DNA of 63,995 bases, the filler included, from Acidimicrobiia bacterium (GTDB taxonomy: Bacteria; Actinomycetota; Acidimicrobiia; Spongiisociales; CAZKJJ01), in NCBI GenBank assembly GCA_046759765.1. It is 14 parts of 14 records of this genome, joined end to end, with 100 filler letters (N's around TTAATTAATTAA, not from the genome) between each part and the next. Parts side by side here need not be neighbours in the genome. Positions count along the whole stretch, not along the records: positions 4,776 to 9,436 come from JBHICV010000174.1; 13 more parts are not named here. One strand, 5' to 3'. The notes beneath the pieces are model-generated. The model was not told the origin of the DNA, made no database searches, and worked only from the letters and a program-made list of their open reading frames with translations. How positions within the stretch are numbered: position 1 is the stretch's first letter; every line of letters starts with the position of its first letter. A program made the position numbers and the translations under genes. This document shows, piece by piece, positions 4,676 to 56,721 of the stretch.

Positions 4676-4818
4676 NNNNNNNNNNNNNNNNNNNNNNNNN
4701 NNNNNNNNNNNNNNNNNNNTTAATTAATTAANNNNNNNNNNNNNNNNNNNNNNNNNNNNNNNNNNNNNNNNNNNNTGGACCGTTGAGGCCACAACTCCCT
4801 AGCTCGGCGAGGGTTCGG

Positions 4819-4852
4819 GTAGCGCATATGACACTGAGCCGATATGGGCGGC
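4819..4852 (+). repeat. dif-like site copy A (12-nt spacer variant)
   Basis: GTAGCGCATAT-GACACTGAGCCG-ATATGGGCGGC; arms match copies at 7230, 8806, 56694 and 56802. Confidence 0.7.
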
Positions 4853-4861
4853 CGGAAGCAG

Positions 4862-5062
4862 TTATGGGCCGTCGTGGTTGATCCAGACGGGGCGGAGCGC
4901 CCGATCGAGCTCTTGGCTGACCTCGTCGAGCAGGTCGCTCCAACGTTCCCGCTCAGCGTCAGACCAGGCTGCGGAATGTTCTTCCCAGATCCGGCGCCAC
5001 TCCGCGAACTCGTTCTGAGCCTGGCGCATGCTCCGGATGCCCTTTTCAAACTCATCGGACAT
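4862..5062 (-). CDS. Small hypothetical protein (66 aa, MSDEFEKG...)
   Basis: Helical, charged ORF with an AGGGGG RBS; its stop lies 9 nt from dif-like site A. Confidence 0.55.
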   Translation of the reverse strand: MSDEFEKGIRSMRQAQNEFAEWRRIWEEHSAAWSDAERERWSDLLDEVSQELDRALRPVWINHDGP

Positions 5063-5289
5063 CAGTGCCCCCCTTTGTCGGGCTAACCGAGTTCGAACCG
5101 GCTGGTCAGTTCTGGTAACTCGTACCGGGTTCAGATCCGCACCGTAGGCCCGCCCAATCAGCAGCAACAGGGGCAAACGTCACCACCGGCCTTTACGCAA
5201 CGTCCCACCCGTTCGATGACAGGTCAGACTTCTGCCGGTCATCGAACGGAATATGGGCGCGCCTCAAGCCATGGCACCAGTGCATTTGT

Positions 5290-5474
5290 GATGCGATGAG
5301 GGAGTGGGCCTCCGGTCCCCGTTGACGTGTGTCCCCGATAGTCGGGTGTCAATCAAGCCCTCGAGAAGGGAGGCCCGTGTGTCACGTTACGTGGGAATCG
5401 ATTTGCTTCGCCGCCGTTCGGTGGTGGTGATCTTGGACGGGGGCGGCCGGATGCTGTCCTGGCGGAGAGTCGCG
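5290..5474 (+). mobile_element. IS110-family remnant: structured non-coding left end plus the first ~32 codons of the transposase
   Basis: GTG at 5379 after GAAGGGAGG gives VSRYVGIDLLRRRSVVVILDGGGRMLSWRRV, matching the YVGIDLH start of the DEDD RuvC-like domain. Similarity ends at the stop codon of the convergent ALS gene. Confidence 0.75.
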
Positions 5475-7115
5475 TCAGACCAGCATGGTCGAGCGGGGGT
5501 AAGCCACTTCCGGATCGGTGACCACGTTCACGAGAGCAGGCTTGTTGGATCCGAGCGCCCGCTCGATCGCGGGCCGGATGCCGCTGGGCTCGGTGACAAA
5601 CTCGCCATGGCCCCCGAGCGCCTCGACCACCAGGTCGTAGCGACATTCGGGCTGCAGGTCGGCGGCGACGTCGTGTCCGTAAAGGGCTCTCATCGGATGC
5701 TTCTCCAGACCCCAGATCCCGTTGTTGCCGACCACGGCCAGCACCGGGAGTTGGTGCCGTACCATCGTGTCGAAGTCCAAGCCGGAGAAACCGAAGGCTC
5801 CGTCTCCCATCAGAAGCATTACCTGGGCGGTGGGGTGGACGAGACGGGCCGCGATCGCGTATCCGGGTCCGCTGCCCAGGCAGCCGAAGGGACCGGTGTC
5901 CAGCCAACGGCCGGGTTGGCTCGACTTCACATACCTCCCAGCAAAGCTGACGAAGTCCCCGCCATCGCCCATGATGACCGCGTCGTCGTCGAGGATCTGC
6001 TCCAGCTCTCCGTAGATACGGGCCGGGTGGATCGGCATAGCCGCACTCGTGAGCTCAGCGCGGTCGGTGGCCCTTCTCGAGTCTTCTTCCTGCCGCAGGT
6101 GGTAGTGCCACTCATCCAGCGAGTTCGAACTGTCCACGAGTTCGGTTAGTGCGTCGAACATGCGGGCGAGACTTCCGGCCGCAGAGCCGGCAAGGTCGAC
6201 ATGAGTTGCCAGCTGCTCGGGCGCGTCAGCGAGATGCACCACCGAGGACGGTCCGAAGTCGCCGAAGCGAAGCCGGAAGTCGAGCGGGGTGCCGGCAACA
6301 ACCACCAGATCAGCATGAGAGAGCGCGAGCCCCCGTGCTCGGGCATAAGCGAGCGGGTGACCGGCGGGCATTGTGCCTCTAGCTGAGCCAGACGTGAACA
6401 CCGGCATCTGTGTTTTCTCGGCCAGCAATCGCATCGGCTCCCATGCCTCGTCGAAGTAGACGTCGGTTCCTGCCAAGAGAACCGGCGTCCGAGCATCGTC
6501 AATGAGGTTGGCGACCCGCGCGAGATCTCCTTCGTCGGCCTGCAGCATCTCGACCTCCGGTGGACTCCCCAGCTGGGCTGACGCAACAGCGGCTAGGGCG
6601 TCGATTCCGGCATCCAGGAACACCGGCCCCCGATGGGGAGTACAGGCCGCCACAACTGCCGTGTCCACCTGCATTGGGATCTTCCCGGTGGCGGTCACGG
6701 TCTCGGCCCGTTTTGTGATGGGAGCCATCACCGGGACGTGGTCGAGCTCTTGGAGGCTGCCCTGGCCCCACCGGAAGGCTGGTGCCCGGCCACCTACCAC
6801 CACCAGCGGTGACCCTGCGGCTTGGGCGCTGGCTACCGCAGAAGCTGCGTTGGTGACTCCCGGTCCTGCGGTGACGACCGCAACCCCGGGACGACGGGTC
6901 AGCTTGGCGATGCCTTCGGCGGCAAACACTGCCGTCTGCTCGTGCCGGGTGTCGACCAGTCGCACACCGGCCGCTACGCACGCGTCGTAGATGGGAAACA
7001 GATGACCTCCCGACAACGTGAAGATGGTGTCGACGCCATGGCGTTGGAGGGCGGCCACCAGGAGCTTGCCGCCGCTCCCTTCCACCTGATCTCGCTCCTT
7101 TGCTGCCGTGGCCAT
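5475..7115 (-). CDS. TPP-dependent acetolactate synthase-like / 2-hydroxyacyl-CoA lyase (IlvG-like) enzyme
   Basis: FTLSGGH, RHEQTAVFAA, TAGPG, GDGGDF, GPFGCLG and the GDGAFG...NNG TPP motif. Confidence 0.92.
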   Translation of the reverse strand: MATAAKERDQVEGSGGKLLVAALQRHGVDTIFTLSGGHLFPIYDACVAAGVRLVDTRHEQTAVFAAEGIAKLTRRPGVAVVTAGPGVTNAASAVASAQAAGSPLVVVGGRAPAFRWGQGSLQELDHVPVMAPITKRAETVTATGKIPMQVDTAVVAACTPHRGPVFLDAGIDALAAVASAQLGSPPEVEMLQADEGDLARVANLIDDARTPVLLAGTDVYFDEAWEPMRLLAEKTQMPVFTSGSARGTMPAGHPLAYARARGLALSHADLVVVAGTPLDFRLRFGDFGPSSVVHLADAPEQLATHVDLAGSAAGSLARMFDALTELVDSSNSLDEWHYHLRQEEDSRRATDRAELTSAAMPIHPARIYGELEQILDDDAVIMGDGGDFVSFAGRYVKSSQPGRWLDTGPFGCLGSGPGYAIAARLVHPTAQVMLLMGDGAFGFSGLDFDTMVRHQLPVLAVVGNNGIWGLEKHPMRALYGHDVAADLQPECRYDLVVEALGGHGEFVTEPSGIRPAIERALGSNKPALVNVVTDPEVAYPRSTMLV

Positions 7116-7229
7116 AGCCGCATCTCCCTTCACCTCGACCGACGGGCAGCCCTAGCAGCACGAATGTTCGGACCGCGCTTGCCAGAGCCGAAGCTACCCA
7201 GGGTGCTCGCACTGAGCTGACACCTCCGG

Positions 7230-7256
7230 CTAGCGCAATGTGCCGATGTGGGCGGT
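7230..7256 (+). repeat. dif-like site copy B
   Basis: CTAGCGCA-AT-GTGCCG-ATGTGGGCGGT (1-nt deletion in the left arm), intergenic. Confidence 0.7.
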
Positions 7257-7404
7257 CTGGCATGGGACGGGTGGATCGAGGTTCTCACTTTATTCCTGGG
7301 TCTCTGCAGACAACGGCACCGCCGAGCGTGTAGGTGAGCGTCAGTTGAGTGTTCCACCGGGGCTGCTTGAGCTGCGCTGGCAGGCGATTGTCGAGCTCAG
7401 ATCT

Positions 7405-8649
7405 TCATTCGGGTCCCGCGTAGCTTCCAGCCGTGTCGGGAAACATCGCCTTGATGACCTTGAAGCTGGACACGTCGACCGTGGCGTCCATGTGTAGGAA
7501 CACCGAGGCGTCCCGGAAGTACTTTTCGATGCCTACCTCGAGCATCGACCCGTTGCCGCCATGCAGTTCCATCGCCTGCCTGCAGACCTCCAAGATCTCT
7601 TCGGAGGCGAACACCTTGACCATGTTGCAGAGTTTGTCGGTGTCGGCCGCCTCTTCGTCAACTGCCTTCGCTGCGTGGCTCAGCAGCGCCCTGACGGCGT
7701 CTAGCTTGATCGCCATTTGAGCGAGGCGAACTGCCACCGCCTGGTGCTTGATGAGCACACGGCCGCCCTGCACGTGCTGCTGAACAAAGGCGGCCGTGTC
7801 CTCAAAGGCAGCAACGCCAACGCCCAGGTTCTTGGCTGCCTGGAGTATCTTTCCCGGCCGAAAATAGACAGCAGCCTTGCCCAGCGCATCATCCCGGGCA
7901 AGCAGGTGATCTTCGGGCACTCGGCAGTCCTCGAAGACGATCTCCCCGTTGTTCATGTAGCGCCCGCCGATGGTCTCGTTGCACCGGGTCACGACTAGGC
8001 CAGGAGTGTCGCGCGGCACGAGGAAGCTGCTCGTGCCCTCCAGTAAGCCAACCTGTGGGTTGGTGTTGGCATAAACGACAAAAAGGGACGCGTCGTAGCC
8101 GTTGCTGATGAACTGCTTGCGTCCGTTGATCGTCCAACGGCCGTCAGCCAGCACTGCCCGAGTGTCCATGTTGGCCTCGGGTACGTTGTAGGGAAGCCAA
8201 CGGTCCGATGCGCCTTTGGGCTCGGTGAGGCAATGGGCCATCAGGAATGACGGATTGTCCACGTAGCGGGGGAACCATTCTTCCTGGAGATGCTCGGGTG
8301 CCAGGGTCCGCAGCAGGACTGCGATCTTCCAGTTCTGAGCGAGCTTGTCAGCCAGACCCGCATCCCCTCGTGCGATCTCAGTGGCGATGATGGCGAACGT
8401 CTGCGCCTCGGTCCTGGGGTCGAGCTGTACTCCGCCGTAGCGCTCCGGCACCCCCAGGGACCGAAGCCCAGCCGCATCGGCACCTTCGAGGATCTCGGGA
8501 GGGAGCCGCTCCTCCGGCTCGAAGACCCACTCGCGCTCCCGGTTGGCCTGGATGAACGGGGTCACGACCCCGTCCACGAAGTCGCGGCAGGTCTGTTTCA
8601 TTAGCCGCTGCTCAACTGAAAGTTCCTGCTCCTGCATTGTCAACGTCAT
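7405..8649 (-). CDS. Acyl-CoA dehydrogenase family protein
   Basis: CLTEPKGASD, INGRKQFISNG, QGGRVLIKHQAV, ELHGGNG, EKYFRDA. Confidence 0.92.
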   Translation of the reverse strand: MTLTMQEQELSVEQRLMKQTCRDFVDGVVTPFIQANREREWVFEPEERLPPEILEGADAAGLRSLGVPERYGGVQLDPRTEAQTFAIIATEIARGDAGLADKLAQNWKIAVLLRTLAPEHLQEEWFPRYVDNPSFLMAHCLTEPKGASDRWLPYNVPEANMDTRAVLADGRWTINGRKQFISNGYDASLFVVYANTNPQVGLLEGTSSFLVPRDTPGLVVTRCNETIGGRYMNNGEIVFEDCRVPEDHLLARDDALGKAAVYFRPGKILQAAKNLGVGVAAFEDTAAFVQQHVQGGRVLIKHQAVAVRLAQMAIKLDAVRALLSHAAKAVDEEAADTDKLCNMVKVFASEEILEVCRQAMELHGGNGSMLEVGIEKYFRDASVFLHMDATVDVSSFKVIKAMFPDTAGSYAGPE

Positions 8650-8805
8650 TGCTTCCGCCTCCTTTGGCCTTGGATTTCTTGGTCTGCACCTTGACCCGGT
8701 TACAGGCCCAAACCTATCGAGGTTTTCAGAGCGGGCCCTTCGCATGGCCGTGACATCGGGACTATGGCCTCGAGCTCGGCTGCCTACCTACCGCCTGCCA
8801 TCCGA

Positions 8806-8833
8806 GTGGAGCACATGTGCCGATATGGGCGGG
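8806..8833 (+). repeat. dif-like site copy C
   Basis: GTGGAGCACAT-GTGCCG-ATATGGGCGGG, intergenic. Confidence 0.75.
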
Positions 8834-8911
8834 TAATGCGATCGTTTAGTGAAGACAGGCCTGGAGAGCGCGGAAAGGGCGCTCCGACTTGGCGCCGGCA
8901 AGTGTTAGACG

Positions 8912-9265
8912 TCAGCCAGCGAGGCGGCGCTGAAGAGCGGCAGCCACGTTCGTATAAATCTGCCTTCGTCTGAAGTGTCCGAGATGGCGCTGGGACGGTG
9001 CCAGGAAGCCGGACCAAGGAATAACTACTAGCCCTGGCCGGTCGAGCACCTCAGCGCAAGGAGGCCGGTAATCAGACCAAACCTGGTGGACCACAACGGC
9101 ATCAGGCACCTCTGTTACCAAGCACGGCGCTCCCACAGCGGACGGACAATCGGCCATCGTCGCTGCAGGACAAGACCCGACCGTGAATCCGGCCTCGTCT
9201 AGGGACTGGCGCATTCGATCAAGCATGACATCAGAGGACGGGCCCACGACCAGAACGGTGCTCAC
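8912..9265 (-). CDS. Hypothetical Cys-containing protein (117 aa) with receiver-like N-terminus
   Basis: GTG start after GGGAGGG; STVLVV...L.EAGFTV.SCP......CP......C pattern. Confidence 0.55.
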   Translation of the reverse strand: MSTVLVVGPSSDVMLDRMRQSLDEAGFTVGSCPAATMADCPSAVGAPCLVTEVPDAVVVHQVWSDYRPPCAEVLDRPGLVVIPWSGFLAPSQRHLGHFRRRQIYTNVAAALQRRLAG

Positions 9266-9536
9266 ATATCCCTCCCGCACGGGAACCAAGAATTGCCGCC
9301 GGTACTCACCCTTGTGTCTGGCATTCCTCCTCGCTAGGGCCGAAGGTCCCCGAAGCCACAATCCAGCCGGGAGTGCCAATGACTGGAGTTCCCCCTTCTG
9401 GCCGGACACCTTGGTTATGCGGCCATGGTGTTGGTGNNNNNNNNNNNNNNNNNNNNNNNNNNNNNNNNNNNNNNNNNNNNTTAATTAATTAANNNNNNNN
9501 NNNNNNNNNNNNNNNNNNNNNNNNNNNNNNNNNNNN

Positions 9537-46661: not shown

Positions 46662-46689
46662 GTCACCCATAACACCCGCTATGCGCCAT
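46662..46689 (-). repeat. dif-like site, reverse orientation
   Basis: Minus strand reads ATGGCGCATAG-CGGGTG-TTATGGGTGAC, an exact 11-6-11 layout. Confidence 0.6.
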
Positions 46690-56580: not shown

Positions 56581-56693
56581 GCCGATTGAGGATACGAGTC
56601 CACCTGGCTACGCAGGGATTCAAATGGGAGGAGACTCCGCCCAAACTTGCGAGCGAAATGACCGCAGATGTGTGCGGCCAACGCCCGACTCTG

Positions 56694-56721
56694 GGTACGC
56701 ATATGTGCCGATATGGGCGGT
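56694..56721 (+). repeat. dif-like site copy D (best copy)
   Basis: GGTACGCATAT-GTGCCG-ATATGGGCGGT; CATAT/ATATG inverted arms around a 6-bp core. Confidence 0.8.

Follow-up and report, generated by a model that had tools for sequence, protein, structure and literature searches.

Genes and repeated sites on contig C174

The stretch of DNA analysed here (the window) is 63,995 bases long and consists of 14 short contigs, with N spacers between them, of one metagenome-assembled genome (MAG), that of an Acidimicrobiia bacterium (G000; 308 contigs, 2,726,369 bp, 63.1% G+C, 92% complete). The finding is confined to one of them, the 4661-bp contig C174 (window positions 4776–9436), where copies of a short dif-like site lie between genes. 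Genes are our own open reading frame (ORF) calls, made with a GC3-based caller. The features are listed below, together with a further copy of the site on another contig.

4819–4852, plus strand: site A, with left arm, a 12-nt spacer (6 extra nt), core-like GAGCCG and right arm ATATGGGCGG
4862–5176, minus strand: small ORF, 104 amino acids from TTG; cassette cargo, no Pfam family
5251–5261, plus strand: half site, right arm ATATGGGCGCG without recognisable core or left arm
5359–5462, strand not assigned: element of about 100 bp, multi-copy in community contigs
5475–7133, minus strand: gene for a thiamine-diphosphate (TPP) enzyme, acetolactate-synthase-like, 552 amino acids; cassette cargo
7230–7256, plus strand: site B, degenerate, with a 1-nt deletion in the left arm and A>G in the right arm
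7405–8652, minus strand: acyl-CoA dehydrogenase gene, 415 amino acids from ATG at 8652, in an ORF open to 8745; cassette cargo
8806–8833, plus strand: site C, core and right arm exact, four mismatches in the left arm
8912–9409, minus strand: uncertain gene, ORF of 165 amino acids, no Pfam family, rejected by the GC3-based caller
56693–56720, plus strand: site D, on contig C186, GGGTACGCATATGTGCCGATATGGGCGG

Sites A, B and C, the half site at 5251 and copy D had all been reported in a preliminary description of this DNA and were found again at these coordinates; a further copy that it placed at 46662 is not a match at up to three mismatches. With up to two mismatches, the 16-mer GTGCCGATATGGGCGG has four matches in the window, all on the plus strand, where 100 shuffles give an expectation of 0.04. 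For a 24-mer at up to three mismatches there are two, against 0.00 expected. The same description counted four minus-strand genes between the sites, of which three pass the gene caller and the fourth, at 8912–9409, does not. Their cargo is unrelated, as it had said: a TPP enzyme (Pfam TPP_enzyme_N, E 9e-37; TPP_enzyme_M, 1e-17; TPP_enzyme_C, 3e-30), an acyl-CoA dehydrogenase (Acyl-CoA_dh_N, Acyl-CoA_dh_M and Acyl-CoA_dh_1; start read from the sequence) and two ORFs without Pfam family. The true start of the small ORF is likely the ATG at 5062, which would give 66 amino acids, behind the run AAAGGGGGG that resembles a ribosome-binding site. Site B lies 147 nt from the stop of the acyl-CoA dehydrogenase gene and about 115 nt from the start of the TPP-enzyme gene. 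Site A, with which the region begins, is 10 nt past the stop of the small gene. Community data were taken from Logan contigs of four runs of a single study, three of which contain the C174 stretch; in two of these three (X1 and X3), site A has the canonical form with a 6-nt spacer.

A dif-like site in many directly repeated copies

The consensus of the site is the 28-mer GGTAGCGCATATGTGCCGATATGGGCGG. When copies are aligned with 60-nt flanks, the information content rises and drops abruptly at the ends of the 28-mer, and the flanks are unrelated. Two arms of about 11 bp, left GGTAGCGCATA-T and right A-TATGGGCGG, enclose a 6-bp core, GTGCCG, which is flanked by a dyad of the inner arm sequences CATAT and ATATG. 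Positions 14–22 are almost invariant and the outer left arm is the most variable part. As the core is asymmetric, the site has a direction. These features, 28 bp with two 11-bp half sites in partial dyad and a 6-bp centre, are those of dif. The 11-6-11 layout, which the preliminary description had given along with the reading of the motif as a dif-like tyrosine-recombinase site, agrees with the part of a review (PMC5357621) in which the central region is said to set the points of strand cleavage and exchange.

Across G000 the 16-mer occurs 19 times exactly, 16 times with one mismatch and nine times with two (44 in total). Sites were defined as 28-mers with at most one mismatch in the right half, or at most seven in total. 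By this rule there are 47 sites on 24 contigs, about ten of which consist of core and right arm only, with an unrelated left side. Nearly all of them (45 of 47) are on contigs of up to 12 kb (244 contigs, 1.26 Mb); the other two are on the 64 longer contigs (1.47 Mb), each within about 110 bp of a contig end (C8 and C21). Full sites are nearly absent from long contigs, contrary to the equal frequency in core regions that the preliminary description had named as a refutation. The sites are direct repeats throughout: orientation is uniform on all ten multi-site contigs, in each of 23 adjacent pairs. Neighbouring sites are 44 to 3443 bp apart (median 799 bp), and 44 of the 47 are intergenic, though the array contigs are 74% coding.

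The genes between the sites are more varied than C174 alone had suggested. Genome-wide, each of the four possible arrangements of gene and site occurs (19 and 20 for genes on the left of the motif, 20 and 16 for genes on its right), so that the co-orientation of genes described for C174 holds for that contig only. Nor does one site per gene hold strictly, for cassettes may contain two genes. Cargo on the other arrays of G000 includes methyltransferases, two adjacent SRPBCC-type genes, a LysE exporter, a sigma-70 factor, a beta-eliminating lyase, a PspC-domain protein, a MacB-type ABC pair, a histidine kinase, a HEPN/nucleotidyltransferase pair, hydrolase-cyclase fusions and IS110-like transposases. 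Pfam detected no recombinase among the 89 proteins scanned from the array contigs.

Near-identical cassettes in divergent relatives

We compared 151 genomes of the order, G000 included. Two of them, G024 and G089, belong to one genus and are 95% complete in six and seven contigs. Their core DNA flanking the arrays is about 76% identical. They nevertheless have in common a block of 1766 bp at 99.5% identity, containing a gene for a 145-amino-acid protein and an adenylate cyclase gene, a block of 853 bp at 99.1%, and a block of 470 bp at 98.7% that is also present at a second G024 locus.

Read base by base, both ends of the 1766-bp block fall inside sites. At one end the identical stretch includes right arm and core and breaks off at the first left-arm base. 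At the other it includes left arm, core and the invariant ATATG, and breaks off in the outer part of the right arm. Both fit an exchange within GTGCCG and, if circularised, the unit would carry exactly one rebuilt site. Homology that ends in a 6-bp core is the signature of a crossover by a tyrosine recombinase. When 132 sequences were compared all against all, blocks of at least 200 bp with at least 95% identity had 13 ends that were internal to both partners. Eight of these are in a filtered site, two are in variant sites recognised by eye and three are off-site; a further 17 ends at locus edges were not counted. In G117, compared in search of an empty site, the right flank has a match and the left flank none. 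Paralogous segments within G000 likewise have their ends at sites, as between C217 and C263 and between C263 and C117. The preliminary description had asked whether breakpoints between strains fall in the 6-bp core, and in these relatives they do.

We therefore regard it as probable that the arrays belong to a Xer-family, integron-like system for the exchange of cassettes. In such a system the 28-bp element would be a double-stranded recombination site for a Xer-family tyrosine recombinase. Two directly repeated sites would recombine within the core, and the DNA between them would be released as a circle with one rebuilt site; by the reverse reaction the circle could insert at any resident site. 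Arrays of self-contained cassettes of 0.3–3.4 kb would build up, shuffle and pass between species in this way.

A Xer-like recombinase beside the sites

Tyrosine recombinases are not scarce in G000, which has 14 matches to the Phage_integrase domain, 13 of them above the cut-off and none on array contigs. Eleven of the matches lie outside the XerC- and XerD-like genes, and two of these eleven are possibly one split gene. The XerD-like gene, on C33, scores 327 bits on the XerD model (cut-off 330), and the XerC-like gene, on C69, 288 bits on the XerC model (cut-off 335). The nearby XerC/D-like gene for which the preliminary description had proposed to test was not found on the array contigs of G000, but a Xer-like recombinase gene does head arrays in other relatives.

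The clearest case is an array of 13 sites in G082, headed by a gene for a recombinase of 296 amino acids (Phage_integrase and SAM_1; PF00589 and PF02899). This gene lies between two inverted sites, after which come 12 co-oriented sites, and a 99% copy of it with the same flanks is found at the end of another contig. A recombinase gene also lies between inverted sites in G118, with arrays on its two sides that are mirror images, and, as a pseudogene, in G014. At the flanks of the corresponding gene of G042 there is a 25-nt inverted repeat that is 96% complementary and has a TGCCGG core. A gene bracketed by inverted sites would be flippable rather than excisable. The catalytic Lys, His-x-x-Arg, His and Tyr are invariant columns in the alignment of this family, and the first catalytic Arg is present in all aligned sequences except the broken copy of G084. 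The protein scores below every curated cut-off, with 156 bits on the XerD model, 79 bits on TIGR02249 (integron integrase, cut-off 265) and 51 bits on NF011946 (cut-off 435). At E ≤1e-30 it is found in 18 of the 151 genomes, 13 of them with at least 60% identity, fragments counted.

Metagenome contigs contain at least 568 relatives of this recombinase. At all five metagenome loci with at least 74% identity (L250–L254), sites with a GTGCCG core abut the recombinase gene. Contigs that include both flanks show an upstream site directed away from the gene and a downstream site with the gene's own direction. At L250, L251, L253 and L254, no more than about 20 nt separate the recombinase stop from the start of the downstream site. 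At L254 and at L192, a short MAG contig, the exact 28-mer of the G000 type lies 10–17 nt past the recombinase stop. From these linkages we infer that this divergent third Xer-like paralog is the best candidate for the acting enzyme. Since the array-linked gene was not found in G000, the arrays of this genome could be served in trans or by the host XerC/XerD-like proteins, or could be enzyme-less like the clusters of attC sites lacking an integron integrase (CALIN) known from integrons.

A separate recombinase is present in the two genomes that exchange cassettes. G024 (L228:9632–10273) and G089 (L229:9885–10526) encode a nearly identical tyrosine recombinase of 213 amino acids, with a catalytic domain only. 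A small gene lies upstream of it, the neighbourhood differs between the two genomes, and there are no sites nearby. It was considered as the enzyme of the system and set aside, being without sites nearby.

Several observations weigh against a Xer-family exchange system, or against the array-linked recombinase as its enzyme. Cassettes of G000 have no near-identical copies at any of the compared loci, with which they have only insertion sequence (IS)-like segments in common, so that the direct evidence for exchange comes from relatives. No circular junction or empty site was seen in community contigs, which are assembled contigs and not reads. Two joints in these contigs, 4852>8811 and 8834>9384, were considered as evidence of excision and rejected, as their sides are only 21–24 nt long and lie in or beside the repeat. 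The array-linked recombinase was not found in G000, which is 92% complete and fragmented, nor in G024 or G089, the pair that exchanges cassettes, and of 13 genomes that contain the family at no less than 60% identity, only six also have the 19-mer of the site described below. A subfamily at 65–71% identity, with higher G+C, has other flanking sequences. Those seen at L256–L259, L269, L277 and L280 are a G+C-rich hairpin followed by a short TGCCGG-centred dyad with lineage-specific arms, and these dyads may be the sites of sister systems. Finally, because the array contigs of G000 are short, their membership of the bin rests on three points, namely a similar G+C content (62.1% versus 63.2%), the two long contigs that end in sites, and the chromosomal arrays of relatives.

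Host Xer proteins as an alternative

Host XerC and XerD alone could run the system, as proposed for the pdif modules of Acinetobacter, with the third Xer-like paralog as a passenger. The layout of the site is that of dif, G000 has the XerD-like (327 bits) and XerC-like (288 bits) genes, and G024 and G089 exchange cassettes without the third paralog. We nevertheless find this explanation unlikely. The site is absent at up to two mismatches from 126 of the 151 genomes, and so it does not look like the dif of the whole order, assuming that Xer genes are general in the order. A dif is a single site at the terminus; here there are 47 copies in G000, and the arrays of G024 lie at 0.23, 1.19 and 1.80 Mb of a 2.09-Mb contig, away from its GC-skew switch at about 0.65–0.95 Mb (judged from 10-kb samples, which are noisy). 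Where true dif sites occur as direct repeats, XerCD/FtsK delete them efficiently, so that perfect direct repeats should not persist if they were served by the host proteins. The linkage described above also speaks against a passenger, as the paralog gene is flanked by sites in four genomes and at five of five close metagenome loci.

The host dif itself was sought in G025, a complete relative with dnaA at 1.339 Mb and a switch of skew and gene strand near 3.06 Mb. It was not found as CATAW-N6-WTATG or ATAW-N6-WTAT in 3.05–3.135 Mb (85 kb around the terminus); the single motif match, at 3.1253 Mb, is probably coding DNA and lies 35–65 kb from the switch.

Setting of the arrays: tRNA genes and insertion sequences

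All six array loci with long context, four in G024 (L023, L024, L025 and L026), one in G089 (L052) and one in G082 (L049), have a tRNA gene within about 0.2–3.5 kb, and the array is always on the 3' side of it. Two of the tRNA genes are Ala-GGC, one is Arg-CCT, two are Arg-ACG and one is Lys-TTT. Islands anchored at tRNA genes thus appear to be the setting of the arrays. No tRNA gene was found on the array contigs of G000. On another contig of this genome, C96 (8600–9286), a tRNA-Thr gene is followed by a phage-type integrase ORF with a catalytic domain only (195 amino acids); near the 5' end of this ORF, not far from the contig end, is a sequence that partly resembles the site.

Such a setting might suggest that the sites are attL/attR scars left by phage-type integrases that inserted small islands in tandem at tRNA genes. 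A gene for a phage-type integrase of 435 amino acids and an HTH_17 gene do lie between the tRNA-Ala gene and the array in G082, an integrase remnant occupies the same place in G024, and 11 of the Phage_integrase matches of G000 lie outside the XerC- and XerD-like genes. We hold this to be very unlikely, since one and the same 28-mer is found beside tRNA genes of four different kinds and overlaps none of them, cassettes down to about 300 bp carry no integrase, and the site has a simple structure of arms and core and brackets a Xer-like gene.

A regulatory operator, a structural repeat like the repetitive extragenic palindromic (REP) sequences, or an RNA element or terminator, in each case without a role in recombination, is hardly credible: the sites are intergenic and often near gene 3' ends (0–77 nt in 12 of 20 right-side cases), and a recombinase gene between inverted repeats recalls the HUH (Y1) transposase flanked by inverted REP sequences in REP/RAYT (REPIN) systems, but the linked enzyme is a tyrosine recombinase (PF00589 and PF02899) and not a HUH transposase, homology blocks end in the core, gene orientation is mixed, distances from site to gene start vary from 6 to 1191 nt and not around the fixed promoter distance that the preliminary description had named as the mark of an operator, C174 has no Rfam match at E ≤1, and four site copies fold no better than shuffles (z −1.07 to +1.21), which makes a terminator, a structured RNA or an attC-like hairpin unlikely.

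Coming back to the Xer-family exchange system, its sites also seem to attract insertion sequences. IS30-like elements (HTH_38 and rve) abut half sites beginning CCCCTGAAA in G082 and G089, and one of those in G089 interrupts a site that is intact in G024. By splitting a site that is intact in the sister genome, the IS30-like element seems to home to the core. The elements are located at L049:4415–5632, L052:10514–11721 and L052:4150–5360. Genes for IS110-like (DEDD) transposases lie near sites in G000, on C172 (159–1229) and C259 (756–1808), and IS110-like elements are possibly a second site-targeting family. Several ORFs run on into the left arm, whose TAG would serve as stop codon.

On balance, and with less assurance than for the exchange system as such, we favour the wider view that the Acidimicrobiia have a cassette system of their own. 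It would comprise a dedicated clade of Xer-like recombinases, short double-stranded dif-type sites, tRNA-anchored arrays, traffic between species and homing of IS30-like and IS110-like elements, with an outer left arm that travels with the cassette and several arrays per chromosome.

Distribution of the site

The 19-mer GCATATGTGCCGATATGGG is present with up to two mismatches in 25 of the 151 genomes, while its reversed control is found in none. There are 29 copies in G000, 19 in G042, 11 in G082, eight in G024, seven in G089, four in G072 and three each in G130 and G147; the remaining genomes have one or two. Co-oriented runs of sites with genes between them are found in G024, G089, G082, G042, G130 and G147. 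Variants of the site keep the core and the dyad, as in CATAAGTGCCGTTATG of G118 and G014 and CATAGGTGCCGATATG of G082. At L110 and L137 the arms are nearly symmetrical (CCGCCCATAT-GTGCCG-ATATGGGCGG), a form that would suit one enzyme acting alone.

In species-representative genomes, at least 142 stretches contain an exact 21-mer; most are short MAG contigs of about 61% G+C. We draw no conclusion across phyla from these matches, because some of the records bear non-actinobacterial names and at least one such stretch, L122 (equal in length to G042:C166), belongs to a genome of this order. The closest relatives of the recombinase on plasmids are at most 51% identical and carry no annotation beyond 'tyrosine-type recombinase/integrase'. 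In the literature searched, which lay largely outside subscription journals, arrays of this kind were not found described for Actinomycetota. The consulted part of a classification of tyrosine recombinases (PMC8138268) likewise describes no such arrays for Actinomycetota.

Two minor features of contig C174 also recur in the community. In community contigs the element of about 100 bp at 5359–5462 is 4–8 times as deep as its flanks and has a loose end on either side; no second copy was found in G000. Reading positions 5379–5483 as the N-terminus of an IS110 transposase was a guess without Pfam support, and it was dropped. The last 54 bases of the contig (9383–9436) have 3–4 times the depth of their flanks in community contigs and, in two runs, connect directly to the end of a site resembling site C. 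A cassette common in the community probably starts with them.

Comparison with known systems

Integrons are one of the closest parallels. Both have small mobile cassettes with diverse accessory cargo and one site in direct orientation per junction. Directly repeated sites with exchange at the sites are found here too; a recombinase gene heads the array in some genomes, arrays in others are enzyme-less, and the sites are targets for insertion sequences, for which the targeting of attC by IS1111 is a precedent. The integron integrase IntI has a specific insertion in its catalytic domain. The attC site is an imperfect palindrome of about 57–141 bp that is recombined as a folded single strand, a description with which the part of PMC3458562 consulted is in line. 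The present site differs from attC in that it is a double-stranded site of dif type, with conservation over 28 bp and no folding signal. Neither is the linked enzyme an IntI, since on the integron-integrase model it reaches 79 bits where the cut-off is 265, and no IntI was found in G000. Further differences from integrons are the mixed orientation of genes in cassettes, the several tRNA-linked loci per genome and the recombinase gene bracketed by inverted sites.

The pdif (xrs) modules of Acinetobacter resemble the present arrays in their site. There, dif-like 28-bp sites flank adaptive genes, the sites form XerC/D and XerD/C pairs, and modules are found nearly unchanged across replicons and species, according to the part of PMC6449649 consulted; insertion sequences target the sites (PMC10132070, in part), as they do here. 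Plasmid cointegrates, and not module excision, are attributed to host XerCD in the available part of a preprint (bioRxiv 10.1101/2024.04.09.588662). The sites of pdif modules are opposed, whereas all 23 adjacent pairs in G000 are direct, and inverted pairs in relatives occur only around the recombinase gene and a few units. Moreover, the present arrays are chromosomal in well-assembled relatives and are tied, in some lineages, to a dedicated Xer-like paralog.

Integrative mobile elements exploiting Xer recombination (IMEX), such as CTXphi, TLCphi and the gonococcal island, integrate at dif, and successive integration can form arrays (PMC5357621, in part). They have in common with the present system that mobile DNA exploits a Xer-type site. 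However, IMEX are found at the single dif of the terminus, whereas here tens of sites occupy several loci, away from the skew switch in G024; as the arrays are not at a single terminus dif, they are not IMEX. In viral contigs, no exact site and no relative of the recombinase was found. Another likeness is offered by Xer modules with a single recombinase (XerS/difSL, XerH/difH and archaeal XerA/dif), in which the recombinase gene adjoins its own site; the gene for XerS is directly beside it (PMC5357621, in part). Those modules have one chromosomal site for dimer resolution, whereas here there are arrays with cargo.

Significance

Integrons are the textbook device for the capture and shuffling of single genes and, to our knowledge, are regarded as essentially absent from Actinomycetota. 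The arrays described here raise a testable question, namely what keeps directly repeated dif-like sites from deletion by the host Xer proteins. A simple 28-bp site and one small recombinase would also be a candidate genetic tool. If the exchange system that we propose is real, it would explain regions of Acidimicrobiia MAGs that are hypervariable and assemble poorly, and it would mean that the machinery of dimer resolution gave rise to the same cassette solution in another phylum.

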